Shown here piece by piece: positions 19,567 to 59,444 of a DNA stretch of 64,000 bases. A model generated the notes under the pieces. It ran no database searches. It was not told the DNA's origin and saw nothing but the letters and a program-made list of their open reading frames with translations. Each line of letters opens with the position of its first letter. The stretch's first letter is position 1. The position numbers and the translations under genes were made by a program. Origin of the DNA: Deltaproteobacteria bacterium (GTDB lineage: Bacteria > Myxococcota_A > Polyangia > JAAYKL01); the NCBI GenBank assembly GCA_029565915.1, contig JAKQNG010000204.1, positions 8,755-72,754 of the forward strand, given 5' to 3'.

Positions 19567-19611
19567 GGGTCTTCCGGCAACTGGCGCCAGAATAGCGCAG
19601 GTCGGGCTTTC

Positions 19612-19640: not shown

Positions 19641-19678
19641 GTAAACAATTTAAGTACATTGTAACAGGAGAAATCACA

Positions 19679-20735: not shown

Positions 20736-21165
20736 AACCGACCTGCCCGTATCGCCGCCGCTGCTCTCCTGTCCGGACCCGGCCCTCCTGTTTCTCCTGG
20801 AGGCCCGGGCCGAAGGGGAACGGTTCATCGCGCAGGCGAAGGAGGACCTCGTGCAACTGGCCGTGACCATGGCCGGCCGGCTGGCGGGCACGACCCTGGC
20901 CCTCGATGCCGCGCAACGGGAATCCCTTTACAAAGACGCTGTCAAACGGGCAGGCGCCCGCTCCTGTGTACTGCGGGTCCATCCGCAGGATGCGACGTCG
21001 ACTTCGCTCTGCAACCGGGCAGAGGATGCGGGATTCGACGTCGTGGCGGACGAATCCCTCATACCGGGGGACTGCGTGGTGGACGCGGGCGGCGTGACGG
21101 TAGACCGGCGGTTGTCCGTCCTGTTGTCCGTCATGGAAGAGGCCCTGCGGCGGAGGCTGCCGTGA
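20716..21165 (+). CDS. FliH/YscL/HrpE-family-like protein (peripheral-stalk or ATPase-regulator homologue), orphan.
   Basis: The C-terminus CVLRVHPQDA...GFDVVADESLIPGDCVVDAGGVTVDRRLSVLLSVMEEAL parallels the FliH C-terminus (LRVHPDDL...GGC.V....G.LDASV). Confidence 0.5.
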   Translation: MGRLIRKTDLPVSPPLLSCPDPALLFLLEARAEGERFIAQAKEDLVQLAVTMAGRLAGTTLALDAAQRESLYKDAVKRAGARSCVLRVHPQDATSTSLCNRAEDAGFDVVADESLIPGDCVVDAGGVTVDRRLSVLLSVMEEALRRRLP

Positions 21166-23766: not shown

Positions 23767-25184
23767 TTTTTCTGTGCGTCCTTTTTCTGCCGTTCCTTTT
23801 CTGCCTTCAATCGCTCTTTCAGCAGCGAACCGTAACCTTCCTTGTTGGTCTGGCGCACGCGCGAAATGGCCAGGGCACCTGCCGGCACATCGGATACAAC
23901 AGTGGTCCCCGAGGCCACGTAGGCACCTTCGCCGACGGTGACCGGGGCCACGAGCTGGGAATCGGAGCCGACAAATACGTTGTCGCCGATGACGGTCTGA
24001 TGCTTGAGAAAGCCGTCGTAATTGCAGAAAATGCAGCCGGCGCCCAGATTCACGTTGTCGCCGATGAGTCCGTCCCCCAGATAGGCCAGATGATTTGCCT
24101 TGGCGCCTTCTCCCATGACAGTTTTTTTCAGCTCCACCCAGTTGCCGACCTTTGCTTTCTTCTTCAGGACCGCACCGGGCCGCAGGCGCGCCATGGGCCC
24201 GACTTCGGCCATGGGCCCGACCACCGCTTCGTCCAGCACGGAATAAGCGCGGATCACGGCGGCGTCTTCGATTGTGCTGTCCCGCAGGATGGCACCGGCC
24301 TCAATGGTACAGCCCCGCCCGATGCGGGTGTTTCCCAGCAGCCGGACCATGGGGCCGAGCACCGTGTCTTCGCCGATGCGGCAATGCGCTTCGATGGTGA
24401 CGGTTTCCGGCCGCTCGACAGTGACCCCCGCGCGCATCCACTGCTGAACGATCCGCCGCTGCTGCACTGCCGCCAGATGGGCCAGATCCACCCGATCATT
24501 GACGCCGGTCACTTCGTCCGGTTCCGCCTCCACGATGGCCACCTGCGATTTCTGCGCTGCGATGGCCACCAGATCGGTCAGATAGAATTCGCCCTGGGCG
24601 TTGGCACTTTTCAGCTTCTGCAGTGATCGGCGCGCAAAGGCCGCGTCCATGAGGTAGATGCCGGAATTGACGAGACCGATACGGCGCTGGGCCGGCGTGC
24701 AATCCCGGTGTTCAACGATGGCGCAGACCTGTCCGTCCGTTTCGATGACCCGCCCGTAGCCCGTCGGATCCGCCGGGCGAAAGGCAATAAAGGCCAACGG
24801 CCCTTTTACGCGTCGCCATTCTTTTGCAAGTCGCGCCACGGTATTTTTCTGCAGCAGGGGAACATCCCCGTAAAGGATCAGCAGCGGGCCTTCGGTTCCC
24901 TTCAGGGCGGGCAGTGCACTCATTACCGCATGGCCGGTGCCGAGCTGCTGTTCCTGATGGGCAAACTGCACGTTCTGAAATCCCGCGCCGCCAACCGCCG
25001 ATTCCACGTCTTCACGTTGATGCCCCACCACCACCACGGTGCGACTGCTCCCGAGGTCGGCGGCCAGTTGGAGCGGATAGTGGATGAGCGGCTGCCCGCA
25101 TAGGGGATGAAGCACCTTGGCCGTGGCCGATTTCATCCGGGTACCTTTGCCGGCGGCCAGTACAATAGTGGCAACGTCTTTCAT
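23763..25184 (-). CDS. glmU: Bifunctional GlmU (UDP-GlcNAc pyrophosphorylase / GlcN-1-P acetyltransferase).
   Basis: IVLAAGKGTRMKS nucleotidyltransferase motif. C-terminal left-handed beta-helix hexapeptide repeats. RBS AAGGA. Confidence 0.9.
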   Translation of the reverse strand: MKDVATIVLAAGKGTRMKSATAKVLHPLCGQPLIHYPLQLAADLGSSRTVVVVGHQREDVESAVGGAGFQNVQFAHQEQQLGTGHAVMSALPALKGTEGPLLILYGDVPLLQKNTVARLAKEWRRVKGPLAFIAFRPADPTGYGRVIETDGQVCAIVEHRDCTPAQRRIGLVNSGIYLMDAAFARRSLQKLKSANAQGEFYLTDLVAIAAQKSQVAIVEAEPDEVTGVNDRVDLAHLAAVQQRRIVQQWMRAGVTVERPETVTIEAHCRIGEDTVLGPMVRLLGNTRIGRGCTIEAGAILRDSTIEDAAVIRAYSVLDEAVVGPMAEVGPMARLRPGAVLKKKAKVGNWVELKKTVMGEGAKANHLAYLGDGLIGDNVNLGAGCIFCNYDGFLKHQTVIGDNVFVGSDSQLVAPVTVGEGAYVASGTTVVSDVPAGALAISRVRQTNKEGYGSLLKERLKAEKERQKKDAQKK

Positions 25185-25193
25185 GAACAGTCC

Positions 25194-26816
25194 TTACAGC
25201 GTTGGTTCGGTTTCCACGAGGCCCTTCAGGATATCCCGCAGGGCCTGCATGTCGAAGGGTTTCTGGATGAATGCGTCAGCGCCCAGAGACAGGAGCTGGT
25301 CGGCCTTTTCTTCCTTGCTGTACCCCGAGGACAGCAGGATGGGCAGATCCGGCGCGATTTCCCGCAGGCGGACAAAGGTTTCGGGACCGTCCATCACAGG
25401 CATGATGAGGTCGAGGATGACCACGGAAATCTGATCCGGATGCTCGCCGTAGAGGCGCAGCGCCTCCCGGCCGTCCCTGGCCAGCAGCACACCGTAGCCC
25501 ATTTTTTCCAGCACGCGGCGACCGGCGAGGCGGATCATTTCTTCGTCGTCCACGAGCATCACCGTTGCGATCCGGGCAATGGACGGGGTTTTCCGCTCGT
25601 TGCCCCCGCTGCTGTCGCTGCGGGTGTTCGTGTCCGCCAGGGGCAGCATCATGGTCACCGTCGTTCCTCTGTTGACACGGCTCTCCAGCAGCACGTCTCC
25701 GCCGTGATTTTTCACGGTGCCGTACACCATGGGAAGACCAAGGCCCGAGGCCTCTCCCATCGGCTTGGTGGTAAAGAACGGCTCGAAGGCCATGGCGGCG
25801 ACTTCCGGTTCCATGCCCCGTCCCGTGTCGCTGACCGCGATCACCGCGTATTCGCCCTTTTCCAGTTCCCGCAAATCCGTGGATTCGTCGTAGCTCTCAT
25901 ACACGCGTTCCGTGGTGACTTCCACGGTCAGCACGCCGCTGTCGCCCATGGAATCCACCGCGTTCAGGCACAGGTTCATGACGGCGTGGTGAATCTGGGT
26001 CGGGTCGCCGTGAATTTCGAGGGGCGCATCGGTCAACCGCGTGACGATGGCAATTTTTTTAGGAATCGAATGTTTGAGGAGGTTCAGCACGTCTTCGATG
26101 ACCGTGTTGACGCAGAAGGTTTCGCGCCGGAACTTTCCCTTTCGCGCAAAGCCCAGCAGATTGAGCATGAGCGTCCGCCCCTTGCGGCAGGCCTTCATGA
26201 TCTGGTCCAGATCGTCGGCGGCCGGACTTCCCGGATGCACTTCCGCCTGCAGTACCGAAGCGAATCCCATGATGGCGCCCAGGGTATTGTTCATGTCATG
26301 GGCGACGCCGCCGGCCAGCCGACCCAGGGATTCCATTTTCTGGGACTGACGCAACTGCTGTTCCACCGTGCGGTTTTTCTTCTTGTCCTCAATGTCCTGC
26401 AGGAAGGCCACCACGGCGCTGTCTCCGTTCCAGGTGATTGTGGTCAGGGCCGCATTGAACCAGCGCCGACGCCGCTCCACCGGCGCCATGTGAATATCGA
26501 TGATGAGCTGTTCGCCCGCCTTTCTGCGGGGCCGCGTGAACCAGCAGCGGATCTGTTCCCGGCACCGCTCCTCCAGCAGGTCGCAGAGAAGCGCGCCCAT
26601 GAACTCCTCGGTGGTCGCCTCAAAACAGGCGCAGAGCGCGCCATTGGCCCAGATGATGCGCTCGTCGCGCAGAATGAAGACGGGACACCGGACCATTTCG
26701 AGAAGAGGAATATCCCGGCCGGACAGGGCGAGGCCCGGAAGAAAATTGTTTTCGTCGTCGGTGAATTGTCCCGCCGTGCCTGTTTGATCGGAAACCATGC
26801 CGGGTGTGCCTGTCAT
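25194..26816 (-). CDS. Hybrid sensor histidine kinase (PAS - HisKA - HATPase - REC).
   Basis: H-box GGVAHDMNNTL. HATPase G-boxes (DTGRGM, GLGLPMV). C-terminal receiver (MLVDDEEM...ILDLIMP). The stop lies 9 nt upstream of the glmU RBS/ATG. Confidence 0.85.
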   Translation of the reverse strand: MTGTPGMVSDQTGTAGQFTDDENNFLPGLALSGRDIPLLEMVRCPVFILRDERIIWANGALCACFEATTEEFMGALLCDLLEERCREQIRCWFTRPRRKAGEQLIIDIHMAPVERRRRWFNAALTTITWNGDSAVVAFLQDIEDKKKNRTVEQQLRQSQKMESLGRLAGGVAHDMNNTLGAIMGFASVLQAEVHPGSPAADDLDQIMKACRKGRTLMLNLLGFARKGKFRRETFCVNTVIEDVLNLLKHSIPKKIAIVTRLTDAPLEIHGDPTQIHHAVMNLCLNAVDSMGDSGVLTVEVTTERVYESYDESTDLRELEKGEYAVIAVSDTGRGMEPEVAAMAFEPFFTTKPMGEASGLGLPMVYGTVKNHGGDVLLESRVNRGTTVTMMLPLADTNTRSDSSGGNERKTPSIARIATVMLVDDEEMIRLAGRRVLEKMGYGVLLARDGREALRLYGEHPDQISVVILDLIMPVMDGPETFVRLREIAPDLPILLSSGYSKEEKADQLLSLGADAFIQKPFDMQALRDILKGLVETEPTL

Positions 26817-26990
26817 CGCTGCGTACGCGTTTCAGGTCTGTCCTGCTTTACCACAACGTATCGGGGTAGTCTATTTCCGCCAATTCGCCCCGCGGAAAAA
26901 TCCCGGGAACCCGGACGCCCTTCCCGCTGTCCATTTCTGCAGAAGCCACGGCACACAACCCGTGGAAAATCGACAACAGGGAGGTCGGCC

Positions 26991-28394
26991 ATGACACTGC
27001 ATGAATGGATGCGGAAATGCTCCGGTGCGCCTGGAGAACACCTGGAACCCAGCGCGGAAGTGCGCGTATTCTGGCGGGATACCTGCCTGCAGGTGGATCC
27101 TCTGCCCGTGAAGGATGGTGCCATCTACCACATCGGTGAGGACCCCGGGTGTGCGTGTCTGCTGCCGGCGGACATGCTCGGCGGACGGCCTTCGTTTCCA
27201 CTGCTGACCGTGGAAGGCGGACGCGCCGTACTGCAGGTGCCGGAGGCCGGATTTCTGGAAACCTGTCGCGCAGGCACCTCCCGGATGGCGCAGATCCCGG
27301 AGCGCCGTGTGACAGTGGATCCGGATATCCTGTACACCGTTTGCCTCGATCCCTGGTTCTTTCAGATTTCCCTCGGCACCCTGCCCGGCCGGCCTCCGGG
27401 CCCACCTGTCCCCTTCGCGCCCCTGCGATGGACCGCTCTGTCTCTTGCGGCCCACGCGGCTTTCTTTCTCGTGCTGGCAATGGTTCCGCCCGATGCGGCG
27501 GGCATGAACCTGAACGATACGCTGCAGCACAACCGGTTTTCGCGGTACATGATTCCGGCGGCTGCCGCGCCGCGGTCAGACGAAACCCGCATCGACCTGC
27601 GGGATCAGAGCGGAAAGCCCGGTGGTGCACCGGCCCCGGGACCGTCAGGCCGGATGGGCAACGCCCGCAGCCCGAAAACGTCCATCCGGATGCCATCGCC
27701 GCAGGAACGGAATCTGAAACCGTTCAGCATTTCGCGGGATGTGTCGAGGGAAGCAGCGTCCCGTGCCGGGATCATTTCGTTCATGACCGGTGCGCAGGCG
27801 TCCCTGTTTCCACAGGACGCCATGACGGGCATCAGCCCCGAAAGTGCGCTGTCCTATCTTGTCACCGGAGGAAATGTCGACGGATCCGGATACGATGGAC
27901 TGAGCATCCGGGGCACCGGGCGCGGCGGCGGCGGCGATCCGGACGGTGTGATCGGTGTGCACATCGGCCGGATTCCCGGTGACGGAAGAGGGGGCAACTG
28001 CACGGGTGGGCGCTGCGGCTCTCCGGCGCCCGGGGATCTGAGTGGGCACCGTCGGATGACCGATCCCGTTACACCGGGAAATGCGGTGCTGGTGGGTTCC
28101 CTGTCCCGGGAAACCATCCGCCGCCACATTCAGCGCCGCATGAATGAAGTGCGCTACTGCTACGAAGCGGGGTTGAAGAAGAATCCCGGCCTGTCGGGTC
28201 GTATCAGCGTGTTTTTCACCATCGATATGAACGGCATCGTGACGCGCTCCGAAGTCCGGGAAAACTCCCTGACAGGTCAGGACGTGGCGCAGTGCATTGC
28301 CAGGGTGGTACAGCACATCCGCTTTCCGCCGCCTCCGGATCGGGGCACTGTCGCGGTCACCTACCCGTTTTCGCTGATTCAGACGGACAATTGA
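26991..28394 (+). CDS. AgmX/PglI-type C-terminal (TonB-C-like) domain protein with a Pro/Gly-rich central region.
   Basis: RBS GGGAGG. C-terminal ETIRRHIQRRMNEVRYCYEAGLKKNPGLSGRISVFFTIDMNGIVTRSEV...GTVAVTYPFSLIQ. One TM helix (LSLAAHAAFFLVLAMV). Confidence 0.6.
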   Translation: MTLHEWMRKCSGAPGEHLEPSAEVRVFWRDTCLQVDPLPVKDGAIYHIGEDPGCACLLPADMLGGRPSFPLLTVEGGRAVLQVPEAGFLETCRAGTSRMAQIPERRVTVDPDILYTVCLDPWFFQISLGTLPGRPPGPPVPFAPLRWTALSLAAHAAFFLVLAMVPPDAAGMNLNDTLQHNRFSRYMIPAAAAPRSDETRIDLRDQSGKPGGAPAPGPSGRMGNARSPKTSIRMPSPQERNLKPFSISRDVSREAASRAGIISFMTGAQASLFPQDAMTGISPESALSYLVTGGNVDGSGYDGLSIRGTGRGGGGDPDGVIGVHIGRIPGDGRGGNCTGGRCGSPAPGDLSGHRRMTDPVTPGNAVLVGSLSRETIRRHIQRRMNEVRYCYEAGLKKNPGLSGRISVFFTIDMNGIVTRSEVRENSLTGQDVAQCIARVVQHIRFPPPPDRGTVAVTYPFSLIQTDN

Positions 28395-30427: not shown

Positions 30428-31519
30428 TCACAACGCCCGTCCACCGAATCTGTATTTCGACACAAGAAGTCCGGCCGCCAGGATCGCACCCACCGGGATC
30501 AGCGGAAAAAATGCGCCCTGGAAGGGACTGATGGTTCCTTGTTCCATAAGGACTTCCGCCGCGCGCTCACACAGATGAACAAAGAGGAACAACCCGATTC
30601 CCGGAAGCACGGCCATCGATTTCCGCCGCCAGTTCCCGCTGAAGGCCGCCAGCAGCGATGTGATGCCCAGCAGGAAAAATGACAGCGGACGCGCGTGGCG
30701 CCGCCAGAGCTCGAATTGCCATTGTTCCGGAGATGCGCCGTCACAGGCCGGGCCGCGCAGCGCAGCAGTGGTGCGGCTCATGTGGGCCGGAAGGAATGGA
30801 AGGGAGGACGGGGCATCGGGGAGGTCCACCGCCATGGACAGTGTGCCGAAGGACACGGTCGTTCGCTCGTCGCCGCGGAAGCGGAACAGCTCCCCATCGG
30901 TGACGGCCAGATGGACGCGGCGCAGATGGTCAGGGAAGGTCAGGCGGGCATCAGCGGCCACCAGCAGAACAGCGTCGTCAGGCGTTGTGCGGGACAGGAC
31001 GACACCTTTGTAGTGACCCTTTCCGGCGGATGTATCCGCGTAAAAGGCCAGACCGTTTGCGGGAGTGTAAAAGACACCCCGGTCGAGCGCATCGGCAAGT
31101 CCTTCCGGAATGATTTCCACCGCGAATCGCGCAGCCACACCCCGTGCCGCCGGTGCCCCATCCAGCCACAGGAAGGCGCTGAGCACCGTCAGAAAAAGGG
31201 TCATGAGAACGGGCATCCGCAGCAGGCGGAATCTCGAAATGCCCGCGCTGTCCGTGGCCACAAATTCGCCCCGGACGGACATGGCACCGGCTGTGGCAAA
31301 GGCGCCGATGATGATCGCGGGCGTCAATGCCCAGGCGACGACGGAAACGGACAGACAGGCCATGATCTGTCCCAGCACCAGAGCGGGAATCCCGATGTCG
31401 GTCATGGACGGCAGGAGCCGCAGGAACTGCGTGACGAAAAATGCAACGGTACAGCAGACCAGCGCAATGACTGTCCATCCGGCGAGTTCCCGGGCAATGC
31501 GGCTGTCGAGTCGATTCAT
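30428..31519 (-). CDS. LptF/LptG (YjgP/YjgQ) family permease.
   Basis: Six-TM permease with a large periplasmic loop. N-terminus MNRLDSRIARELAG. ATG at 31519. Confidence 0.65.
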   Translation of the reverse strand: MNRLDSRIARELAGWTVIALVCCTVAFFVTQFLRLLPSMTDIGIPALVLGQIMACLSVSVVAWALTPAIIIGAFATAGAMSVRGEFVATDSAGISRFRLLRMPVLMTLFLTVLSAFLWLDGAPAARGVAARFAVEIIPEGLADALDRGVFYTPANGLAFYADTSAGKGHYKGVVLSRTTPDDAVLLVAADARLTFPDHLRRVHLAVTDGELFRFRGDERTTVSFGTLSMAVDLPDAPSSLPFLPAHMSRTTAALRGPACDGASPEQWQFELWRRHARPLSFFLLGITSLLAAFSGNWRRKSMAVLPGIGLFLFVHLCERAAEVLMEQGTISPFQGAFFPLIPVGAILAAGLLVSKYRFGGRAL

Positions 31520-31651
31520 GTTTTCTTCCTGAAAGGTGGGCAGATGCCGCGCCCGTGCGTTCAAAGATTCCCTCGCAAAACCCCACCCGCTCTGATAAGA
31601 AAGGCTATCCGAACACATGTCTTGTGTACAAACAATAAGGAAGGTGCGCAG

Positions 31652-33220: not shown

Positions 33221-33604
33221 TCACCGGGGCGGTGGAAGGGAATTGCGGACCACCTCGTCGATGACCGCGTCGTCGTCCCCCAGATTGATGCTCACCAGTC
33301 GTCGCAGGTGGGTGACCGATTCGAGGGAAACGCCGTCCATGACGAACTGCACACCCAGGCGGCCTTCCGATTCCCGCACGATCCGCCCGCCGACGATAAT
33401 GTCCAGGGGTTCGGATCCGCCTTCGAGATGGATGGATGCCCGGACCTGTGTGCCCGGTGCCAGTTTCGCATCGGACACCACCAGCATGCCCGCCATGCTG
33501 AGGTTCTTCACGTCTCCCCGGGCCAGTGGATTGCCGGATGTGTCCGACAGCCGGGCGGTCGTTTGAAAGGACACCCGGGAGAACTGTCGCTTATCTTCGG
33601 TCAT
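33221..33604 (-). CDS. PilZ-domain protein, last gene of the Mla-like operon.
   Basis: RxxxR motif RQFSR and NLSMAG ((D/N)xSxxG motif). ATG at 33604. Confidence 0.7.
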   Translation of the reverse strand: MTEDKRQFSRVSFQTTARLSDTSGNPLARGDVKNLSMAGMLVVSDAKLAPGTQVRASIHLEGGSEPLDIIVGGRIVRESEGRLGVQFVMDGVSLESVTHLRRLVSINLGDDDAVIDEVVRNSLPPPR

Positions 33605-33612
33605 GACAGGTG

Positions 33613-34191
33613 TCAGAACCACCAGCGGGCGCCGGCGGCCACCCAGAACAGCTGGAAACCGATGGGGTCGGGCCGGAACAGGCGGATGGCCGGATTCGCT
33701 TCCACGAAGCACTCCAGCGGGAATTTCTTGAACCAGAGGCTGACGCCGGTCACCAGCCGGATGAACATGGCGGCATACCATTCATCGCGGTAATAATAAT
33801 TGTCATACACGTAGCGCCCGTCCCAGTCCGCGTAGTACCAGCCCCGGAAGAGCCCCAGCGCCACGCCCCCGCCGATGGTGAGATTGAGGGCGCAGGTCTT
33901 CCATCCGTCATAGATGACCACTGGATGAAAAATGACATCGATGCCGGTGATGAACATGGAATGATAATAGTCGTTCCATCCCCAGCCGCCGCCGCCCAGG
34001 TAGAACTGGAAGCCGAAAACCTCCACGGGGAGGACTTTTGCGGTGATGGCCGTTGGATCGCCGAGCTGGAGGCCGACGCCGAAGACTTCGTTGCCGGTGA
34101 GGGTGCGGGCTTCGCTGGTTGCGGGCAGGACGAGGAGCGCGAACGCAGCAACAATCAGTGCCATACGGATTTTAGTATTCATGTAACGCAC
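33613..34191 (-). CDS. Small outer-membrane beta-barrel protein (Trp/Tyr-rich, C-terminal Phe).
   Basis: Signal peptide ending ATSEA. Aromatic-girdle-rich strands. Terminal ...ARWWF. Confidence 0.55.
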   Translation of the reverse strand: MRYMNTKIRMALIVAAFALLVLPATSEARTLTGNEVFGVGLQLGDPTAITAKVLPVEVFGFQFYLGGGGWGWNDYYHSMFITGIDVIFHPVVIYDGWKTCALNLTIGGGVALGLFRGWYYADWDGRYVYDNYYYRDEWYAAMFIRLVTGVSLWFKKFPLECFVEANPAIRLFRPDPIGFQLFWVAAGARWWF

Positions 34192-34244
34192 GATATCACA
34201 GGGGGGTTCAGGTGTCGACAGGCAAAGGGGATCAATCCCGGGAC

Positions 34245-35348
34245 TCAGGGGTTGTCCTTCTTCATCTTCTTGATGACGTCCTTCGCTTCGTCGTCGAGGA
34301 GCCAGGTCTTCTGCAGGGCCTTCAACACGATGGACAGCTCCCGCATGGTGGCGTTCAGCTCCTTGGCCATGCCGGGTATCTCCGGTCCGATTTTCGCCAT
34401 CTGCACCGAGAGGGTCGTCATGTTGCGCACGAGTTGTTCGATCTGCTGCTCCTTGGTCAGTTGCGCCATGGATACCAGCATTTTGTCCAGCTTGCCGTCG
34501 TTCAGCAGTCGATCGGTTCCCGTCAGCGTCTTCTGCAGGGGCGCTTCCGGTTCGGTGATTTCGTTGAGGCGCGCTATCAGCTTGTCGCTTTTGTTGATCA
34601 GTGACTTCACCTTCTCCGGCTCCAGCGACACCGCCAGTGTTTCGATGAGTTGTTTTGTTTTCTTGTCGCCCATCATGTCCGCTGTATTCTTGAACGCGCG
34701 CGGCACATTCGGATCGGTGACGACTGCCAGCAGGGGTTCGTCGATATCTGTAAAGAACTGATTCATGACATCAAGGGTGGGACCCAGCTTGTCGAAGGAT
34801 TCCAGCATCCGCTCCAGCCGGTCCTGCTCGTCCAGCTTGGTCATCACCACGTCCAGGGATTTCACGGCCCGGTCCATGGTTTCCATGTATTTGCCCAGAT
34901 CCAGGGAGGACACCACGTCGAGCAGGTCCCGCGGTTCATCCACGGGTATCGCCGCGTCCGGGGGCAGCTGGGGCATGGGGCCCTTTGACTCCGGCGGCAG
35001 ATAGAGCAGGACGCGCTTTTCACCGATGCCCAGAGCGCGCCGGATCTCGGCCCGGATCCCGCTGGTAATCCGGTAGGCGTGGACGGTCAGGATGGAGAGG
35101 GTCACGTCGATGCGACCGTCCTTGAGAATGGTCATGTCACCCACCCGGCCGATTTCCACACCGGAAAACAGCACCGGAGAGCCCTTGCTCAGGCCGTCGC
35201 CGCGCACCACGTACACATGGTAGGACGTCTTCGGCGTGAACCAGAGGTTTTCCACCGCGGCGCCGATGATGAACAGCGAGACCAGCACGATGGTCACGAG
35301 AATGAAGAAACCGGCGATCCGCTCGCGATAGGTCAGGTAAATTTTCAC
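34245..35348 (-). CDS. mlaD: MlaD/MCE-domain protein with a long C-terminal helical extension.
   Basis: N-terminal TM helix, then the MCE core (YHVYVVRGDGLSKGSPVLFSGVEIGRVGDM). Confidence 0.8.
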   Translation of the reverse strand: MKIYLTYRERIAGFFILVTIVLVSLFIIGAAVENLWFTPKTSYHVYVVRGDGLSKGSPVLFSGVEIGRVGDMTILKDGRIDVTLSILTVHAYRITSGIRAEIRRALGIGEKRVLLYLPPESKGPMPQLPPDAAIPVDEPRDLLDVVSSLDLGKYMETMDRAVKSLDVVMTKLDEQDRLERMLESFDKLGPTLDVMNQFFTDIDEPLLAVVTDPNVPRAFKNTADMMGDKKTKQLIETLAVSLEPEKVKSLINKSDKLIARLNEITEPEAPLQKTLTGTDRLLNDGKLDKMLVSMAQLTKEQQIEQLVRNMTTLSVQMAKIGPEIPGMAKELNATMRELSIVLKALQKTWLLDDEAKDVIKKMKKDNP

Positions 35349-35359
35349 GGTGTTCTCCT

Positions 35360-36055
35360 TCAGACGCTGCGTTCTTTGTACTCTACCACGATTCCGCCCC
35401 GCTCCTCCAGCCAGCTTTCAAAGCCCCGGTTCCGCCGTGACGCGCAGATGCAGATGCCCGACCGACCGGTCTGGTGCCAGGCCACGAGTTGCCGCCAGGC
35501 GATGCCGGTGCCGCTGTCCATGGCCCAGTCTCCGATGCCCTCCAGCACCAGATAGGCGGGCGACAGCACCATGGCCCGGGCGAGACAGGTGCGCCACCGC
35601 GTGAAGCCGTCCACCATGTGGGGCCGCTGATCGGCTACCGCGTGCAGACCAAACGCCTCAATGTAACGGTGGACCAGCGCAGTTTCTTCTTCGAGGGGCA
35701 ACCGGGCGTGTTCCGAGACGGGCAGCGCCACATTGTCCCGGATGGTCCGGTTGGACAGCAGGCCGCCGTATCCCTGCACGAATCCCAGTCGGGCGCGCAG
35801 CCGCTGGACCTCGCGATATCCGATGTTGTAGACGTCCTGCTCAAACACTTCCACGGTGCCGCGGGTGGGCGGGTGCAGGCTGATCAGGCATCGGGCGATG
35901 GTGCCCGCCGGATCCATGGCGGGGTCGGGATTTTCGGGCACGAGGGCCATCCACTGTCCCGCGTGAAGCCGTACGGGCGGAATGACGCAGACAACGGAGC
36001 CCACGGTAATCCGCAGGCCGTCCGTCAGGCGCAGGATGCATGGCAACCCGGTCAC
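35360..36055 (-). CDS. MlaF-like ABC ATPase homologue with all catalytic motifs degenerate (pseudo-ATPase).
   Basis: Homology to MlaF over LGFVQGYGGLLSNRTIRDNVALPVSEHARLP and ...TCLARAMVLSPAYLVLEG. Walker A is replaced by ENPDPAMD. Signature LSGGM is replaced by DGFTRW. Walker B DE becomes EG. The H-loop His is absent (CICAS). Proposed GTG start overlaps the mlaE stop (GTGGTGA). Confidence 0.55.
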   Translation of the reverse strand: MTGLPCILRLTDGLRITVGSVVCVIPPVRLHAGQWMALVPENPDPAMDPAGTIARCLISLHPPTRGTVEVFEQDVYNIGYREVQRLRARLGFVQGYGGLLSNRTIRDNVALPVSEHARLPLEEETALVHRYIEAFGLHAVADQRPHMVDGFTRWRTCLARAMVLSPAYLVLEGIGDWAMDSGTGIAWRQLVAWHQTGRSGICICASRRNRGFESWLEERGGIVVEYKERSV

Positions 36056-36876
36056 CACATGCCTCCAAAGAAGATATTGGCGTCGTTGGACAGCACCATG
36101 ACAAACGAAGCGCCCAGATCGACGGTGAGCAGAAATACCAGGCTGTTCAGGGAGGCCCTTGAAACGGCCACGGGCACCTCCGTCGAGGAACTCTCCACGC
36201 TCATGCCGTGGTAGCAGGCGATCACAAAGACGCCGATACCGCCGAGGACCACCTTGAAGGACAACCCGAACAGATCCATGGGCGTCACGGCCTTGAACAG
36301 GGAGCTGAAAAATGCTTCCGCGGGGATGGACACCAGGAGCTGGGCAACGACGAACCCGCATACCAGGGCCACCGCGTTGAACACCACGTTCAATCCGAAG
36401 AACGAAATCAGGCCACCGAAGATGCGCGGGGTGATCAACTGGCGAACCGGTGAAATGCCCATCGCCTCCAGGGCTTCGATTTCCCGCTGCACGCGCATGA
36501 AACCCAGCTCTGCGGCGATGGCCGTGATGGAGCGCACAATGACGATGCCGCCGGTGAGCAGGGGCGCCAGCTCCCGGATGACCACCACGGTGACCATCTT
36601 TCCGATGTTTTCTGCCCCCGACATCATGCCACCCACACCGCCCAGGCCGCTGACGATAGCGAGGGTTCCCACGCCCAGCGCGACGATGACGACGGGGCCC
36701 ACCGCCTGCACGCCGGTGAAGTAGATCTGCAGAAATACCTGCCGCATGAAATCCCGCTGGCCCAGGTCGCGGTTGGTCCAGATGACCTTGATGGACAGGT
36801 AGAACAGGGCCACCAGCATGAACAGATACTGGAAGAATCCAAAGCCGGCTCTGCCTGTCCGTTGTAGAATATCCAT
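36052..36876 (-). CDS. mlaE: MlaE-family ABC permease.
   Basis: EIEALEAMGISPVRQLITPRIFGGLIS (EAA-like loop). Multiple TM segments. RBS AAGGAGGA precedes the ATG at 36876. Confidence 0.8.
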   Translation of the reverse strand: MDILQRTGRAGFGFFQYLFMLVALFYLSIKVIWTNRDLGQRDFMRQVFLQIYFTGVQAVGPVVIVALGVGTLAIVSGLGGVGGMMSGAENIGKMVTVVVIRELAPLLTGGIVIVRSITAIAAELGFMRVQREIEALEAMGISPVRQLITPRIFGGLISFFGLNVVFNAVALVCGFVVAQLLVSIPAEAFFSSLFKAVTPMDLFGLSFKVVLGGIGVFVIACYHGMSVESSSTEVPVAVSRASLNSLVFLLTVDLGASFVMVLSNDANIFFGGMW

Positions 36877-36987: not shown

Positions 36988-37761
36988 ATGGTCGGCAATA
37001 CCCGGAACACGACACCCCTGCCGCTTCACGTTACCGCCGTCGGCGAAGGGCCGCCGGTGGTCTGTCTGCCGGGACTCGGCTTGTCGGCGGTGATTTTTTC
37101 ACCCCTGGCGCCCCATCTGCCGGACGTGGGGCTCATGCTGGTGGACAATCCCGGCGCCGGCGCCAGCCCCGCACCGAAGGGAGACTACACCATCCAGTGG
37201 ATGGCGGATTGCACCGCTGACCTGATTGACCGCATGTCCATTGCACCCTGCGCGGTAGTCGGTCATTCAATGGGTGGATTCATCGCCCTGCAGCTGGCCC
37301 TCGACCATCCCGACCTCGTATCGCGCATCGCGCTCATCGCATCGAGCCCGGTGTATCTGCACGGCGGGTTGCGACTCGACGAAAAGGGCGATGCGTCCCG
37401 GATCATCCGCGCCAATCTCGGCCGCTTGACGGCCCCGGCCTTCCGCGCGAAGGGTGACGCCTTCGAACGGGTGGTCGAGGACGTGGTGCGCACGGCCGGT
37501 CCCGGCCGGGGATTTGCGGGTCAACTGGCCGCCGCCCGGGCCTTCGATGTCACCGACCGGCTGCAGGATATCCGTTGCGATGCGCTGATCATCCACGGCG
37601 CGCAGGATGCCATCGTCCCTGAATCGACGGCCCGGTTCCTGCACGACAACATCTACCGCAGCCACCTCGCCGTCATCGAAGCGTCCGGCCATCTGCCCAC
37701 CGTGGAAACGCCCGAAGAGACCGCTTCGCTGCTGCGGTCGTTCATCGGTCAACGGTCATAA
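36988..37761 (+). CDS. Alpha/beta hydrolase.
   Basis: Nucleophile elbow GHSMGG. HGxxD and His motifs near the C-terminus. The start is chosen to avoid overlapping the divergent mlaE. Confidence 0.7.
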   Translation: MVGNTRNTTPLPLHVTAVGEGPPVVCLPGLGLSAVIFSPLAPHLPDVGLMLVDNPGAGASPAPKGDYTIQWMADCTADLIDRMSIAPCAVVGHSMGGFIALQLALDHPDLVSRIALIASSPVYLHGGLRLDEKGDASRIIRANLGRLTAPAFRAKGDAFERVVEDVVRTAGPGRGFAGQLAAARAFDVTDRLQDIRCDALIIHGAQDAIVPESTARFLHDNIYRSHLAVIEASGHLPTVETPEETASLLRSFIGQRS

Positions 37762-37802: not shown

Positions 37803-38291
37803 TCATTGGCACGGGGTGGTCGGCAGTCCCGCGGCGGTCCATGCGTCGATGCCGCCGTCCAGAATCCACAGGGATGTGTATCCGCTTTCCTGAAGGGTCG
37901 TGAAGGCACTCTCGCTGCGTACGCCCCGCCGGCAGTAAATCAGGATGTCCGCATCAACGGAAACTTCGGTGAGGCGATCCGGCAGCTGATCCCAGGGAAT
38001 CAGCAGGGATTCGCCGATGCAGCCGAGCTCGTAGAATTCCACGTCGGCCACGTTGAGCAGCAGCAGGTCTGCACCTCCTTCGAGGGCGGCCGACAACTGG
38101 TCCGGAGAAACGAATTTCTGCGCAGGAAGCGATGCCGTTTCGCTGTTGCTGTCCTCGTCTTCCGAGGACGACGTGTCTGCGCCCGTCGCGGAGGTATCGG
38201 AATCCCCGTCCGGTGGCGACGGGGAGTCGGCGCAACGACCGCCGAGCAGCGCCGGCGCGAAAAAAAGCAGGAGAACAGATATGGTTTTCAT
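37803..38291 (-). CDS. Secreted rhodanese-domain sulfurtransferase with an acidic N-terminal linker.
   Basis: Signal peptide. Active-site loop YCRRGVRS. Confidence 0.75.
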   Translation of the reverse strand: MKTISVLLLFFAPALLGGRCADSPSPPDGDSDTSATGADTSSSEDEDSNSETASLPAQKFVSPDQLSAALEGGADLLLLNVADVEFYELGCIGESLLIPWDQLPDRLTEVSVDADILIYCRRGVRSESAFTTLQESGYTSLWILDGGIDAWTAAGLPTTPCQ

Positions 38292-38300: not shown

Positions 38301-40280
38301 TTACATGGACATCGGCCCGCCATCGGGCAGGGGAAGGCGGATGATGAACGTTGTTCCTTCACCGGGACGGGAGTCCACGCGCATTTCGCCGCGATGGGTT
38401 TCTGTGATGATGAAGTAGGACACGGCAAGCCCCAACCCGGTGCCCACACCCACTTCCTTGGTGGTAAAAAACGGCTCGAATACGCGCTTCGCAATGTGTT
38501 CATCCATTCCGGGGCCGTTGTCGGCAATATCGATCTGCAGCATGCCGTCGCGGATGTGTACGCGAATAACGAACTTCGAAGGCACGCGGGAACCGGTCAC
38601 CAGTCGCTGTTCGGCCATGGCCTGGGCGCCATTTTTGAAAACGTTGAACAGCACCTGCTGGATGCGGCTCCGTTCGCAGAGGATGAGGGGCAATCCGGGC
38701 GCGTAGTCCCGTTCGATGGCGATTTTGCGAAAATCGTAATCGTTTTTCAAATCGTAGTCGTTTTTCATGAGCGCCAGGGTTTCCTCGATGAGCGCGGGGA
38801 CATCGTTGGAGGAACTGCTGGAGCTGTTTTTGCGCGTGAAGTTGAGCATGTTGCGGACGATATCCGTGGCCCGTTCTCCGGACTCGCGGATCATTCCGAT
38901 CATCTGCAGAATCCGCCGCTTTTCGAGATACGCTCGGATGGCGGCCATGGTGGTGCCCGCTTCCCGCGCCGCGTCCACATTGGCAGCGAGATCGTCGCGG
39001 AACCGGTTTTCGAGCACCTGAGCGTTCTGCAGCATTCCGCCGAGGGGGTTGTTGATTTCGTGGGCCATGCCCGCGGCGAGCCCGCCCACGGAGATCATCT
39101 TTTCCGACTGCAGCATCATTTCTTCGAACCGCTTCTTTTCACTCACATCGTCCACGCGGATCACTGCCCCTTCCACGCCGTTGGCCACCAGCGGAAAGAT
39201 GGTCACGTCCTCATAGCGCAGCTCATCGTTGACCAGCGTCTTCCGGGTGGGCGAGGTGTGAATCCGCCGCTGACGCATGGCGGCGAGAATATCGTCCATC
39301 TGCGCCGCAAAGCGGGGAAACACATCCGTCAGGTTCTTTCCCACGGCCTCTGCCGCGCGCACGCCGGTCTGCTGCTCCGCGTGGCGGTTCCACTGGGTCA
39401 CCCGGCCGTCCGCGTCCACGGACACCAGCACGGAGGGCATGGAATTGATGATGTTGTCCACGTAGTTGCGTATGTGGATGAGCTCTTTTTCGGCCTGCTT
39501 GCGCGCCGTAATATCCTGCAGGTGTTCAATGACGTACTGCACCTCTCCAGTTTCATTGAGGATGGGATAAGAACGACACAGGAGCCACACCTGCTTTCCG
39601 GTGTGGAACTTTTCAATTTCCGCCGGCTGCTTCGTTTCCCGCGCGATTCTGCTCGCACATTCGTCGCAGGGGTTGTTCCGGCCGATGACTTCGAAACAGT
39701 ATTGCCCTTTCACCTCTTCCAGCGACTTTCCGTGAAAGCGATAGCCCGCCGCATTGTACCGGATGACGCGGCGATCCCGATCCTGCACGCCGATGACGTC
39801 CGGGATGCCGTTGAGCACTGCTTCCAGCAGCTCCTTGCTGTCGGCGAGCTCCCTGGTGCGGTGCGCAATCTCTTCCTCCAGCGCTCGTTGTCGCGCGGCG
39901 ATGGCAAGGTGATTCTGAATCCGCGCGATCAGTTCGTCGGGGAAAACGGGCTTGGTCAGAAAGTCCGCGGCGCCCGCCGCAAAAGCCCCGGACATGATTT
40001 CCGCATCCGCGAATCCGGTGATGAACACCACGGGAATCCGCGCGGTGGCGGCATCGGCCTTCAGCGCCGCGCAGACAGATACGCCGTTTCCATCGGGCAG
40101 GTTCACGTCCAGCAGAATGAGGGCGGGCGGGGCGGTGGCGATGGCCTCCCGGGCGGCGGCGGCGGTGGCGGTGGTGCGGGTCTCCAGACCCCGGGATGTC
40201 AGGGTGGCCGCACAGAGATCACGGCTCAGCGGATCGTCGTCGACAACCAGAATATGTCGGCCGGCCGTGTCTTCGTTCAT
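38301..40280 (-). CDS. Hybrid response regulator / sensor kinase (REC - PAS - PAS - HisKA - HATPase).
   Basis: N-terminal receiver (ILVVDDDP...LLDVNLPDGNG). H-box AAGMAHEINNPL. HATPase DNGPGM...GLGLAVS. Confidence 0.85.
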   Translation of the reverse strand: MNEDTAGRHILVVDDDPLSRDLCAATLTSRGLETRTTATAAAAREAIATAPPALILLDVNLPDGNGVSVCAALKADAATARIPVVFITGFADAEIMSGAFAAGAADFLTKPVFPDELIARIQNHLAIAARQRALEEEIAHRTRELADSKELLEAVLNGIPDVIGVQDRDRRVIRYNAAGYRFHGKSLEEVKGQYCFEVIGRNNPCDECASRIARETKQPAEIEKFHTGKQVWLLCRSYPILNETGEVQYVIEHLQDITARKQAEKELIHIRNYVDNIINSMPSVLVSVDADGRVTQWNRHAEQQTGVRAAEAVGKNLTDVFPRFAAQMDDILAAMRQRRIHTSPTRKTLVNDELRYEDVTIFPLVANGVEGAVIRVDDVSEKKRFEEMMLQSEKMISVGGLAAGMAHEINNPLGGMLQNAQVLENRFRDDLAANVDAAREAGTTMAAIRAYLEKRRILQMIGMIRESGERATDIVRNMLNFTRKNSSSSSSNDVPALIEETLALMKNDYDLKNDYDFRKIAIERDYAPGLPLILCERSRIQQVLFNVFKNGAQAMAEQRLVTGSRVPSKFVIRVHIRDGMLQIDIADNGPGMDEHIAKRVFEPFFTTKEVGVGTGLGLAVSYFIITETHRGEMRVDSRPGEGTTFIIRLPLPDGGPMSM

Positions 40281-40431
40281 CCGACTGTCCACCCCTTCAT
40301 CGGAACGCTGGAGACAACTGACAGAACATCAATGTTACTTTATCGCGCGATAATTAGAACAGAGAAAACCCGTCGGTGCTGCTTTCCCATCTTTCCTTGC
40401 AGACTCCCCGGGCCGTCACTACGATGCACCC

Positions 40432-47376: not shown

Positions 47377-48354
47377 TCAGTCCTTCTCCGTAGCCCGCGC
47401 CACCATCAACAGGTAGGTCCGGGCGGCTTCCACGCGGGTGAACGGGTCCTCACTGGCCATGGCCGCCGCCGCCGCGGCCAGATCCACCGCACCGGGCGCT
47501 GCCCCCACGGCGCCCAGCATCCGCACCGCTTCCCGCTGCAGGGCGCCATTGCCCCGCACGCAGATCCGCCGCAGCAGCTCCGGTGGATGAAACCGCATGG
47601 GTGAATCCAGCAGTCGCAGCAGGACGCTGTTGGGCCAGGCATCCTTCTTGCGGGGAAAACCGCCGGCGGGTGCGGTCACGCCGAAGGAGGACAGCAGTTC
47701 GCCCCGCAGATCGGCCGCCAGCGGATATCGCGTGCCGTTCTGCGTTCCGGCCAGCTCGCGCCGTCTCGCCGCGGAAAACGCCACAGCCACGGCCAGCGGT
47801 CCGTTGTCGAAGGGCGCCAGCAGGGCGGGAAGCGCCTTCCATTCGTCGGGAAGCGGTGCGTCGGCGGTGGCGTCGCCCGCGTGCATGGCAGTGCGCAGTC
47901 CGTCCGGGACAGTTCCGCGTCGCGCGCAGGCCAGCCATGCGAATACCGCCACTTCCGGGGCCGTGTCGTCGTTCCCGCGCCAGGGGGGAAGCGGATCGTC
48001 AACGCGCTCGGCGATCCATCGCCAGCACAGGGCCGCCAGCAGCGGATCGGCGTCCTCGGTGCCGCGGGCGATGGCGGATTGTGCCTTTTCTTCGTCGTGG
48101 CGCAGGGACAGGCGCCGGGCGTACACCGCCGCCCAGGCAGCGAGGGTCGGGTCGTTGCCACTCAGGGCATCCGCGAGGATATCCGCCGCAACCTGCGCAT
48201 CCCTCTCCACCAGATCGTCGATGGGGCCGGGGTCTGTTTCCGTTGCGTTCGGTTCGTCCGGCGACTCCGCAATGACGCGGGAGGCACCACCGCTGCCCCC
48301 GCAGGCGCAGAGCAGTATCGTCGCGAACACCATCCCGGAGCGGCGGGGGATCAT
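47377..48354 (-). CDS. Hypothetical lipoprotein (helical repeat).
   Basis: Lipobox LLCAC. Overlaps both neighbouring genes by 4 nt (operon). Confidence 0.4.
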   Translation of the reverse strand: MIPRRSGMVFATILLCACGGSGGASRVIAESPDEPNATETDPGPIDDLVERDAQVAADILADALSGNDPTLAAWAAVYARRLSLRHDEEKAQSAIARGTEDADPLLAALCWRWIAERVDDPLPPWRGNDDTAPEVAVFAWLACARRGTVPDGLRTAMHAGDATADAPLPDEWKALPALLAPFDNGPLAVAVAFSAARRRELAGTQNGTRYPLAADLRGELLSSFGVTAPAGGFPRKKDAWPNSVLLRLLDSPMRFHPPELLRRICVRGNGALQREAVRMLGAVGAAPGAVDLAAAAAAMASEDPFTRVEAARTYLLMVARATEKD

Positions 48355-59443: not shown

Positions 59444-59444
59444 C

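Follow-up and report, generated by a model that had tools for sequence, protein, structure and literature searches.

The window, the whole 64-kb stretch of DNA that was analysed, encodes on its minus strand an MlaE/YrbE-type permease, an ABC-like protein, an MCE protein, an OMP-like protein and a PilZ protein. All five are present where the initial annotation had placed them, and a sixth gene diverges from the permease gene. The features of the locus are as follows.

36988-37761, plus strand: cytoplasmic alpha/beta-fold hydrolase (Pfam: Abhydrolase_1, 1.5e-25; Abhydrolase_6; Thioesterase)
36052-36876, minus strand: MlaE/YrbE-type permease, 274 aa, ATG at 36876 (PF02405, E = 2e-45)
35360-36055, minus strand: ABC-fold nucleotide-binding domain without motifs ("pseudo-NBD"), 231 aa, GTG start (PF00005, 31.7 bits)
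34245-35348, minus strand: single-MCE protein, 367 aa (PF02470, E = 1.8e-10), with a ~225-residue helical tail
33613-34182, minus strand: secreted, aromatic-rich OMP-like protein, 189 aa, with a signal peptide (DUF3996 below threshold)
33221-33604, minus strand: single-domain PilZ protein, 127 aa (PF07238, E = 2.1e-12)

The permease covers positions 3-208 of the 212 in the PF02405 profile (Pfam), and its best sequence matches in the PDB are MlaE of P. aeruginosa and E. coli and YrbE1A/B of M. smegmatis. Its gene is the first of the module, with orthologues of 274-284 residues lying 5' of the pseudo-NBD gene wherever the 5' flank reaches. The module genes are translationally coupled: the GTG start of the pseudo-NBD overlaps the TGA stop of mlaE (GTGA, or GTGGTGA with the alternative GTG at 36058), an overlap that is 4 nt in the nine loci that have gene calls, and the GTG start of the MCE gene has AAGGAG ahead of it. 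The order permease, pseudo-NBD, MCE is invariant among all related loci with flanks long enough to include the adjacent genes, and the actual unit is a conserved envelope lipid-transport set of these three genes, the last encoding a needle-type MCE protein.

The MCE protein is made up of an N-terminal transmembrane helix, one MCE beta-barrel and an all-helical tail of ~225 residues that is predicted to form a needle. Its AlphaFold2 model places the transmembrane helix at residues 7-33, strands at 40-137 and helices at 142-365, the needle part of this monomer model being of low confidence (pLDDT 50-70). The Helical_needle family (PF28544) is precomputed for an identical protein, P0240. The protein is conserved from end to end across related loci (36-77% identity), with a conserved C-terminal tip (...LKALQKTWLL). 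Its top Foldseek matches are Mce1B/A/C/D/F, over ~320 columns, and the family profile has a weak match (32 bits), extending from the MCE region into the helical one, to PDB chain 13hr_I (312 aa), presumably PA3213. The description of the operon as "Mla-like" is imprecise, since the length of the helical tail and the closest structural matches (Mce1A-F and MceG) put the module among needle-type MCE systems; its architecture is nearer to Mce1 and PA3211-PA3214 than to MlaFEDB.

The claim of the initial annotation that the ABC protein has lost Walker A, the signature, the catalytic Glu and the H-loop His was confirmed. The strings concerned are found in the pseudo-NBD as quoted: ENPDPAMD at residue 41, in the place of Walker A; FVQGYGGLLSNRT at residue 92, in the Q-loop region; DGFTRW at residue 149, where the ABC signature is expected; LVLEGIGDW at residue 169, in which the Walker B D-E has become E172-G173; and CASRRN at residue 204, with an Arg at the position of the H-loop His. 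The protein matches none of the regular expressions that describe Walker A, xSGG and hhhDE, and its alignment to the ABC_tran profile spans positions 26-132 only, leaving the Walker A part unmatched. A complete ABC nucleotide-binding-domain fold is nevertheless kept in the predicted structure (AlphaFold2 pLDDT 95.9, pTM 0.92), whose top Foldseek matches are MceG (8fed_H), LolD and MlaF (7ch8 and 6xbd), with TM ~0.7 and E ~1e-14. By sequence the protein resembles ABC NBDs generally, with MetN, LolD, FtsE, MlaF and MceG scoring alike; it is the genomic context and the fold that justify the label "MlaF homologue". The protein may still have a nucleotide or ligand site of a non-canonical kind.

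Pseudo-NBDs are a discrete family. We found 67 close homologues, and among 1.84 billion proteins there are 24 full-length representatives (50% identity clusters, E < 1e-30), after which the matches abruptly become partial only. Across 90 family members GxxxxGK[ST] never occurs, xSGG occurs in one, and hhhDE occurs in two but away from the Walker B position in both. Identity among these 90 proteins falls to ~37%, yet the substitutions are shared. The P-loop has given way to a longer loop that is acidic and rich in proline (PExxDPxxDPxG), LSGGQ becomes VDGxTRW, the Walker B D-E becomes E-G and the H-loop His becomes Arg. Residues P40, D48-P49, D149-G150, T152-R153-W154, E172-G173, G175, W177, W187, C204 and R207 are invariant or nearly so, and this conservation of a remodelled "active site" suggests that the site still does something specific. 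The most conserved stretches of the pseudo-NBD (78 sequences) are residues 87-116 and 144-176; the top block (R..GFVQGxGGLLSNRT..N.ALP..H) is the Q-loop and helical-subdomain region, which in ABC transporters docks on the coupling helix of the permease.

These findings bear on whether the gene is simply a decaying pseudogene, or the product of a sequencing or frameshift error. The missing motifs, and nothing further, speak for such an explanation. The ORF, however, is intact in this window and in every related locus checked, the losses and the substitutions are shared throughout the family, the fold is predicted with confidence, and an independent assembly from a different project (L014) carries a 100% identical sequence. 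We consider this explanation refuted and give it practically no weight. That the gene is a conserved pseudo-ATPase and not a decayed one, as had been proposed, is borne out by losses common to ~90 relatives, intact ORFs and conserved replacements. Values of dN were 0.28-0.59 for the pseudo-NBD, much like the 0.30-0.56 of the adjacent MCE gene, and 0.14-0.34 for MlaE; dN/dS was ~0.09-0.19 in closer pairs and up to 0.57 in the most distant, figures that cover the computable pairs only, dS being saturated.

The OMP-like protein has a signal peptide that ends at SEA, followed by R, 10 Trp and 12 Tyr residues, and a C-terminus reading ...GARWWF; its DUF3996 score is 16.2 bits against a cut-off of 22 bits, and it appears beta-barrel-like by sequence features only. 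Both c-di-GMP-binding motifs are present in the PilZ protein (RQFSR at residue 6 and NLSMAG at residue 34), and an FHA-GGDEF cyclase is also encoded in the window. The initial annotation had these two genes take the place of MlaA, MlaB and MlaC, with the device under c-di-GMP control. The absence of MlaA/B/C equivalents was substantiated, as a Pfam scan of the ~50 ORFs of the window detected no MlaA, MlaB, MlaC or PqiC-type domain. A five-gene operon with the barrel standing in for MlaA/OmpC and with PilZ as the source of c-di-GMP control, both as integral parts, would fit the shared strand of all five genes and their spacing, the PilZ gene beginning 8 nt past the OMP stop and the OMP gene 62 nt past the MCE stop, in a gap with one weak promoter-like site, no more than expected by chance. 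It would also supply the outer-membrane docking partner that a needle system needs, since no conserved partner of this kind adjoins the module in any related locus, leaving the far end of the conduit undefined. LptF/G are encoded, and the host is a diderm. But no homologue of the OMP or of PilZ lies beside the module in any related locus, the adjacency being confined to this window, and among the 16 homologues of the OMP-like protein the three on contigs of 50-65 kb (52 kb for P0230) are monocistronic, in unrelated contexts, with no MCE or PilZ gene nearby. Furthermore, the one known needle-type ABC/MCE system uses a PqiC-like lipoprotein and not a barrel (PMC13631591). We therefore regard an integral role of the two genes as very unlikely; neither the replacement of MlaA/B/C nor the c-di-GMP regulation was upheld, and we infer that both genes are local neighbours peculiar to this genome, outside the conserved module.

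With all ATP-handling motifs lost in ~90 relatives, ATP hydrolysis is probably not part of how this ABC-type machine operates, and the earlier proposal of "ATP-independent or trans-energised" transport can reasonably be inferred. We lean, by a slight balance of probability, towards an envelope-spanning conduit with the pseudo-NBD as its structural or regulatory cap and with passive or sink-driven flow. Two pseudo-NBDs would cap an MlaE dimer on its cytoplasmic face, forming a clamp whose role is structural or regulatory but not catalytic, canonical ATP binding and hydrolysis presumably not being possible. An MCE hexamer would extend into a hydrophobic needle that spans the periplasm, its length extrapolated from PA3213, so that an MlaC-type shuttle would not be needed. 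Hydrophobic cargo might run down its own gradient, as reported for PqiABC, a precedent for a passive MCE conduit (bioRxiv 10.64898/2026.09.15.751761), although the energisation of non-ABC MCE systems is still open (PMC13017536). Alternatively, a metabolic sink might pull the cargo, and a candidate is the conserved cytoplasmic esterase whose gene is divergent from the module in about half of the loci. This hydrolase, whose ORF is open from the TTG at 36916, carries a GHSMGG nucleophile elbow and a C-terminal His and resembles PcaD, BioH and RutD, scoring below every NCBIfam cut-off. Of the 15 loci with sufficient flanking sequence, 8 have a full-length orthologue (27-48% identity) beside mlaE or close to it and about half lack one, and the linkage to the module may partly be inherited synteny.

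In mycobacteria the four Mce systems rely on a common ATPase, MceG/Mkl, whose gene lies outside their operons. By this precedent, and with MceG heading the list of structures similar to the pseudo-NBD, the module could be energised in trans by a canonical MlaF/MceG-type ATPase encoded elsewhere that replaces or pairs with the pseudo-NBD, the latter serving as a placeholder, an assembly factor or an inhibitor that holds the transporter inactive until the active subunit exchanges in. Within +/-8 kb, none of the long related loci encodes a canonical MlaF-type ATPase, the only additional ABC ATPases being FtsEX in one locus (L024) and an ABC-2/GldG-type set at 56224-59443 of the window. The search for a second MlaF-like ATPase, as had been suggested, thus came out negative over +/-8 kb of the long loci, and for this genome it covers 64 kb, so that an orphan MceG-like ATPase could lie elsewhere. 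Energisation in trans is nonetheless unlikely in our estimation. The pseudo-NBD gene adjoins those of the permease and the MCE protein in all loci examined, with 4-nt overlaps in the nine that have gene calls, and this fixed position indicates a stoichiometric, permanent partner; the permease-docking region is its most conserved surface, and it should therefore fill the site that an active NBD would need. In a heterodimer with a canonical NBD, moreover, both composite ATP sites would be half-degenerate because the pseudo-NBD lacks Walker A and the signature.

Possibly, the remodelled ATP site binds another ligand or a partner, making the pseudo-NBD a sensor that gates a regulated rather than a constitutive conduit; for this genome, c-di-GMP-bound PilZ is a conceivable partner. 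The (near-)invariant replacement residues argue for a new constraint at the site, and the neighbouring PilZ protein has intact RxxxR and [DN]xSxxG motifs, with the FHA-GGDEF cyclase in the same window. The sequence, however, yields no candidate ligand, the DPxxDP and GDWE motifs are lost in more divergent family members, PilZ is missing from all other loci, and a fixed dimer interface could explain the same conservation. We hold a sensor to be rather improbable and retain the capped conduit as the preferred reading.

In comparison with known systems, E. coli MlaFEDB shares with the module a PF02405 permease, an MCE protein that has one MCE domain behind an N-terminal transmembrane anchor, and the fold of the NBD. 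It differs in using MlaB, MlaC and MlaA-OmpC, none of which the module has, in the short C-terminal helix of MlaD, as opposed to a needle of ~225 residues, and in the C-terminal extension of MlaF, whereas the module's NBD is presumably inactive and lacks the extension. The NCBIfam Mla equivalog scores are all far under cut-off for the module.

In ABC transporters with one degenerate nucleotide site, such as TM287/288, TAP1/2, CFTR and Pdr5, that site still binds ATP and one fully active site is kept. Like the pseudo-NBD, they have an NBD with substituted catalytic motifs that has preserved its fold and still contacts the transmembrane domain. In contrast to them, the only NBD encoded in the module has neither Walker A nor the signature, and neither the catalytic base nor the H-loop, and a homodimer would have no competent site.

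PqiABC and LetAB are, as proposed for the module, envelope-spanning MCE conduits without an ATP-hydrolysing subunit; passive, bidirectional phospholipid exchange has been reported for PqiABC (10.64898/2026.09.15.751761), and how LetAB is energised is unknown (PMC13017536). Their inner-membrane partners, PqiA and LetA, belong to another, non-ABC fold family, whereas the module keeps a permease of the ABC type together with a subunit of NBD fold. Their MCE proteins contain three or seven MCE domains compared with one.

Further counterparts of the module are the actinobacterial Mce1/Mce4 systems (YrbEA/B, MceG, MceA-F; PDB 8fed). MceG is the best structural match of its NBD (E = 1.2e-14), YrbE1A/B match its permease and Mce1B/A/C/D/F are the best structural matches of its MCE protein, an MCE domain plus helical needle being common to both. 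However, Mce1 combines six distinct MCE proteins with an active ATPase whose gene is not in the operon, whereas the module has one MCE gene, presumably forming a homohexamer, and a motif-less NBD within the operon, in a diderm with LptF/G.

P. aeruginosa PA3211-PA3214 comprises an MlaE-like permease, an ABC ATPase, the needle-type single-MCE protein PA3213 and a PqiC-like outer-membrane lipoprotein, PA3214 (PMC13631591). PA3212 is described as an ATPase, whereas the module's NBD has no catalytic motif, and no gene for a PqiC-like lipoprotein adjoins the module in any locus. The needle of PA3213 measures ~179-200 A for residues 138-303, and the subcomplex ~230 A (PMC13631591); the helical tail has ~165 residues in PA3213 and ~225 in the module, the sequence similarity being weak (32 bits). 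Both systems nonetheless have the same gene order, in which permease and NBD are followed by a single-MCE protein whose helices form a long needle, and both do without an MlaC-type shuttle.

All five genes described in the initial annotation, and the motif strings that it quoted, were found exactly where it had placed them, as consecutive ORFs on the minus strand between 33221 and 36876.

Genes of the minus-strand cluster
36052-36876, minus: MlaE-family permease, 274 aa; PF02405, E = 2e-45
35360-36055, minus: ABC-like protein (pseudo-NBD), 231 aa; GTG start overlaps the mlaE stop codon
34245-35348, minus: MCE protein, 367 aa; PF02470; AAGGAG ribosome-binding site, 11 nt past the pseudo-NBD stop
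33613-34182, minus: secreted aromatic-rich protein (OMP-like), 189 aa; 62-nt gap after the MCE gene
33221-33604, minus: PilZ protein, 127 aa; PF07238, 47.7 bits; start 8 nt past the OMP stop codon

The PilZ-domain protein, a predicted c-di-GMP receptor, carries both c-di-GMP-binding motifs, RxxxR (RQFSR, residue 6) and [DN]xSxxG (NLSMAG, residue 34). The OMP-like protein matched no Pfam family above threshold; a signal peptide and an invariant C-terminal G-x-R-W-x-F occur in 17 homologues, and its putative identity as an OMP comes solely from that signal peptide and the C-terminal GARWWF. The OMP and PilZ genes may or may not be co-transcribed with the first three genes; a scan for promoters and terminators found no more sites than in shuffled sequence.

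The AlphaFold2 model of the pseudo-NBD (pLDDT 95.9, pTM 0.92) predicts the RecA-like core and helical subdomain of an NBD. Foldseek matched this model with a probability of 1.0 and a TM of ~0.7 to MceG, LolD, MlaF, MetN and FtsE, the best PDB matches (E ~1e-14) being MceG from the Mce1 complex of M. smegmatis, LolD and MlaF. The protein had been called an MlaF homologue, a label based on gene context and fold; by sequence it aligns with ABC NBDs as a group, MetN, LolD, FtsE, MlaF and MceG scoring about equally. The ABC_tran profile (PF00005) scored 31.7 bits against a cut-off of 25 and matched at profile positions 26-132 only, leaving the Walker A part unmatched. Motif assignments were derived by alignment to a canonical MlaF-type database protein (P0068) together with the AlphaFold2 secondary structure. 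The Walker A motif, or P-loop (GxxGxGK[ST]), is missing from the pseudo-NBD, which has a longer acidic, proline-rich loop instead, PENPDPAMDPAG (residues 40-51); GxxxxGK[ST] was found in none of the 90 family members, the comparator P0068 having GPSGTGKT. At the LSGGQ position the pseudo-NBD has VDGFTRW (residues 148-154), and xSGG was found in a single member of the 90. The LIYD-E of P0068 at the Walker B position aligns with LVLE172-G173, whose E172 and G173 are invariant, and in 0 of 90 members is a D-E pair present at that position. The H-loop histidine is replaced by Arg207, the strand expected to end in S-H reading C-A-S-R207, and the Q-loop glutamine is variable across the family (Q, H or P). 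The residues that substitute for the catalytic motifs are themselves invariant or nearly so, as might be seen if the conserved, remodelled site bound another ligand or partner, a reading that we consider quite improbable. The most conserved block of the protein, R..GFVQGxGGLLSNRT..N.ALP..H (residues 87-116), comprises the Q-loop and the first part of the helical subdomain, a surface that in ABC transporters touches the coupling helix of the permease. Our results demonstrate that the pseudo-NBD has kept the ABC fold and the permease-docking surface and has none of the residue classes by which ATP is canonically bound and hydrolysed.

A database search identified 67 close homologues of the pseudo-NBD with 39-67% identity, followed by an abrupt fall to canonical ABC ATPases. 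When 1.84 billion representative proteins were searched with the family profile, just 24 full-length representatives had E < 1e-30, and the matches after these were partial and confined to the central region. A search of genome contigs with the single protein as query returned only two matches, both to unrelated canonical ABC ATPases. The metagenome outgroup loci (L033-L093) were of no use as a sister group: the ABC ATPases that they encode are ordinary, their motifs are intact, and just two have an MlaE neighbour. The pseudo-NBD ORF was intact at every locus checked, the dN of its gene was approximately that of the adjoining MCE gene, and an independent ENA assembly (L014) was 100% identical over mlaE, the pseudo-NBD gene and the MCE gene. 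For pairs with a computable dS, dN/dS was ~0.09-0.19 when they were close and rose to 0.57 when they were most distant, although these estimates are weakly informative as dS was saturated (at least 1, or undefined) for almost all pairs. Even with dN/dS counted as weak evidence, the intact ORFs, the dN similar to that of the MCE gene and the identity of L014 exclude a pseudogene or sequencing artefact. The proposal in the initial annotation of a conserved pseudo-ATPase, rather than a decayed gene, is borne out by the intact ORFs and by motif losses that recur across the 90 members with conserved replacements.

Synteny was assessed from gene tables for eleven contigs and 19 further metagenomic loci. 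Wherever the contig extends that far, the pseudo-NBD gene is flanked upstream by a gene for a 274-284-aa MlaE and downstream by one for a 363-371-aa MCE protein, an order that is kept even at ~40% pseudo-NBD identity, and a 4-nt overlap joins the mlaE stop to the pseudo-NBD start in each of the nine loci for which genes were called. The permease, the pseudo-NBD and the needle-type MCE protein form a tightly coupled triad, and it is these three genes, rather than all five, that make up the actual unit. Neither the OMP nor the PilZ protein had a homologue at any module locus other than the window, and on contigs of 50-65 kb OMP homologues (including P0230, on a contig of 52 kb) stand alone among unrelated genes. 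The earlier five-gene, c-di-GMP-regulated model, in which the OMP and PilZ protein are integral parts of the system, has no comparative support and is in our view very improbable. The window also encodes an FHA-GAF-sigma54 activator (15276-17141, minus strand) and an FHA-GGDEF diguanylate cyclase (18625-19953, minus strand); the latter indicates that the organism has c-di-GMP signalling, so a stray PilZ gene is unremarkable.

An all-versus-all ORF comparison of 15 long loci identified one other recurrent neighbour, a cytoplasmic alpha/beta-fold hydrolase (GHSxGG) that is PcaD/BioH/RutD-like and scores below every NCBIfam threshold. Its gene is divergent from mlaE in 8 of the 15 loci, at pseudo-NBD identities down to 42%: in the window (36988-37761, plus strand) and in L001 (6244-7086), L002 (6296-7063), L003 (4592-5350), L011 (4279-5049), L012 (1153-1932), L016 (13-816) and L024 (6299-7066). 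The hydrolase is a candidate for a functional partner of the module or for a metabolic sink. A PqiC-like gene (ABC_trans_aux) was not found beside the module in any locus, nor was there a conserved fourth gene downstream. A gene for a GT2 glycosyltransferase with TPR repeats is convergent with, and just downstream of, the MCE gene in L001 (9885-11042), L011 (7913-9070) and L012 (4739-5887); it adjoins Wzz and Wzy genes in L011 and is absent from the window. Near the window module, on the minus strand, are genes for an LptF/LptG-family permease (30428-31618), which shows the organism to be a diderm that exports LPS, a secreted rhodanese (37803-38291) and a REC-PAS-PAS-HisKA-HATPase hybrid kinase (38301-40292), a PAS kinase also being present beside the module in L003. 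Further away, a gene cut by the start of the window (98-7549, plus strand) encodes 2483 aa of a type I highly reducing PKS module with the end of a KS, then AT, DH, C-methyltransferase, ER, KR, ACP and TE domains. Large ORFs with coding-like GC3 and no Pfam match at E <= 0.001 were found at 25107-28394 (plus strand, 1095 aa), 13092-14798 (minus, 568 aa), 20928-21980 (minus, 350 aa) and 47377-48354 (minus, 325 aa).

In the MCE protein, the MCE domain is predicted to lead into an extended helical needle domain. The AlphaFold2 model has an N-terminal transmembrane helix (7-33), a confident MCE beta-barrel (40-137) and a region made up entirely of helices (142-365). Confidence in this last region is moderate to low, as is usual when a single chain of an oligomeric coiled assembly is modelled, and the needle geometry is low-confidence. 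The protein is conserved over its full length in related loci (36-77% identity), its top Foldseek matches were Mce1B/A/C/D/F over ~320 columns, and PF28544 (Helical_needle) was precomputed for the identical database protein P0240 and several orthologues. In addition, the family profile matched a 312-aa PDB chain, 13hr_I, over positions 24-265, comprising the MCE and helical regions; we take this chain to be PA3213. The helical tail of the window protein is ~60 residues longer than that of PA3213. The needle of PA3213 measures ~179-200 A for residues 138-303 and its subcomplex ~230 A, which fits the width of the periplasm (PMC13631591). By analogy, the needle of the window protein could cross the periplasm, which would account for the missing MlaC. 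The most conserved stretch of the tail (alignment A2; window 34245-34320) is the C-terminal ...VLKALQKTWLL, preceded by GPEIP. As the C-terminal peptides of PA3213 and PqiB dock on an OM lipoprotein (PMC13631591), ...VLKALQKTWLL may be a docking element for an outer partner.

Taken together, we consider it somewhat probable that the module is a conduit free of ATP hydrolysis, capped by the pseudo-NBD as a clamp or gate. A dimer of the pseudo-NBD would cap the MlaE dimer without catalysis, and the cargo, a phospholipid or other hydrophobic molecule, would pass the MCE needle without ATP hydrolysis, either driven down its own gradient or drawn by a metabolic sink, for which the frequently linked cytoplasmic esterase (the alpha/beta-hydrolase) is a candidate. 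Passive flow was recently reported for PqiABC (10.64898/2026.09.15.751761). The main alternative is that a canonical MceG-like ATPase encoded elsewhere energises the module in trans, as occurs with MceG in mycobacteria. This is unlikely in our assessment, since the pseudo-NBD is translationally coupled and has a conserved docking surface, and neither composite ATP site would be sound in a heterodimer. No canonical MlaF-type ATPase was found within +/-8 kb of the module in the 15 long loci. Two candidate partners were rejected: in L024, a further ABC ATPase encoded 3.3 kb upstream is FtsE beside FtsX, and the window ABC ATPase at 56224-57216, which is of the ABC-2 type and has intact motifs, belongs to a cluster (56224-61538, plus strand) that also encodes an ABC-2 permease, a GldG-like ABC_transp_aux protein and a DUF4340 protein. 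That cluster resembles gliding-associated GldAFG sets, and besides its ATPase and the pseudo-NBD the window encodes no ABC ATPase.

The next-best matches to the family profile were not typical ABC ATPases; they were a sizeable set of ~230-245-aa MlaF-type NBDs (P0101-P0161), two of which are named by JGI as the K02065-type 'phospholipid/cholesterol/gamma-HCH transport system ATP-binding protein'. These have a common GGLL[SN]N[RK]T block, the signature VSGSQRK and usually LLLDDP at Walker B, such that the catalytic Glu is usually Asp; they have no H-loop histidine, and Walker A is kept in only some members. Potentially, these NBDs are evolutionary intermediates. A broader proposal, which we put forward tentatively and on balance doubt, is that an ABC scaffold has been turned into an ATP-independent, envelope-spanning lipid channel, with the NBD remaining on MlaE purely as a clamp or gate that is free of nucleotide. 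If so, the pseudo-NBD family would be the end point of a wider trend that includes partly degenerate NBDs, and many 'ABC-type' MCE systems outside model organisms would not be driven by ATP hydrolysis. If the P0101-P0161 NBDs are also in MlaE/MCE modules, loss of catalysis among MCE-associated NBDs would be graded and far more widespread.

What powers MCE systems, and which way they carry lipids, are current questions in the field: ABC ATPases drive Mla and Mce1, PqiABC appears passive, and the energisation of LetAB is one of these questions. A conserved MlaE/MCE machine with a non-hydrolysing NBD would be a natural test case for the non-energy role of the ABC scaffold, such as assembly, gating or the holding of a conformation, as well as for the passive working of a needle-type MCE conduit. 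ABC transporters in which one of the sites is degenerate are familiar, and a partner NBD lacking any competent site is, to our knowledge, unusual; the module would add a rare, fully nucleotide-free pseudo-NBD that is still coupled to its transmembrane partner. The literature searched in full text contained no description of such a motif-less NBD family in an MCE system. Automated annotations, such as 'ATP-binding cassette domain-containing protein' and 'lysophospholipase L1 biosynthesis ATPase subunit', claim more than is known of these proteins.

Compared to the Mla pathway, the module has the MlaE permease (PF02405, E = 2e-45), although the NCBIfam MlaE models scored below their cut-offs (113.5 versus 212.2; 97.6 versus 315). 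An active MlaF and the STAS protein MlaB have no counterparts here: the MlaF equivalog scored 43 bits against a cut-off of 441, and no STAS protein was found in the cluster or among the ~50 window ORFs. MlaA, MlaB, MlaC and PqiC-type domains were likewise not found among those ORFs, and neither MlaC nor MlaA/VacJ was found in the gene tables of the related loci. In addition, MlaD has one MCE domain and a short C-terminal helix, whereas the 367-aa protein here has predicted helices over 142-365 and scored 28.5 bits against the MlaD equivalog (cut-off 135). Needle-type ABC/MCE systems include Mce1-4 and PA3211-PA3214, the latter comprising an MlaE-like permease, an ATPase, a needle-type MCE protein and a PqiC-like OM lipoprotein (PMC13631591). 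These differ from the module in having a competent ATPase (MceG or PA3212), which the motif-less pseudo-NBD does not match, and an OM or tip partner (the PqiC-like lipoprotein, or LucB and accessory proteins in Mce1), which was not found in cis here and may have its gene at another site in the genome. Both the needle-type systems and MlaFEDB need an active ATPase, and the module has neither that nor their outer partners in cis. PqiABC and LetAB likewise have no ATPase activity, but their inner-membrane proteins belong to a different family. By function and architecture, the needle-type ABC/MCE systems (Mce1-4 and PA3211-PA3214) are the closest known relatives of the module, with MlaFEDB being further removed.
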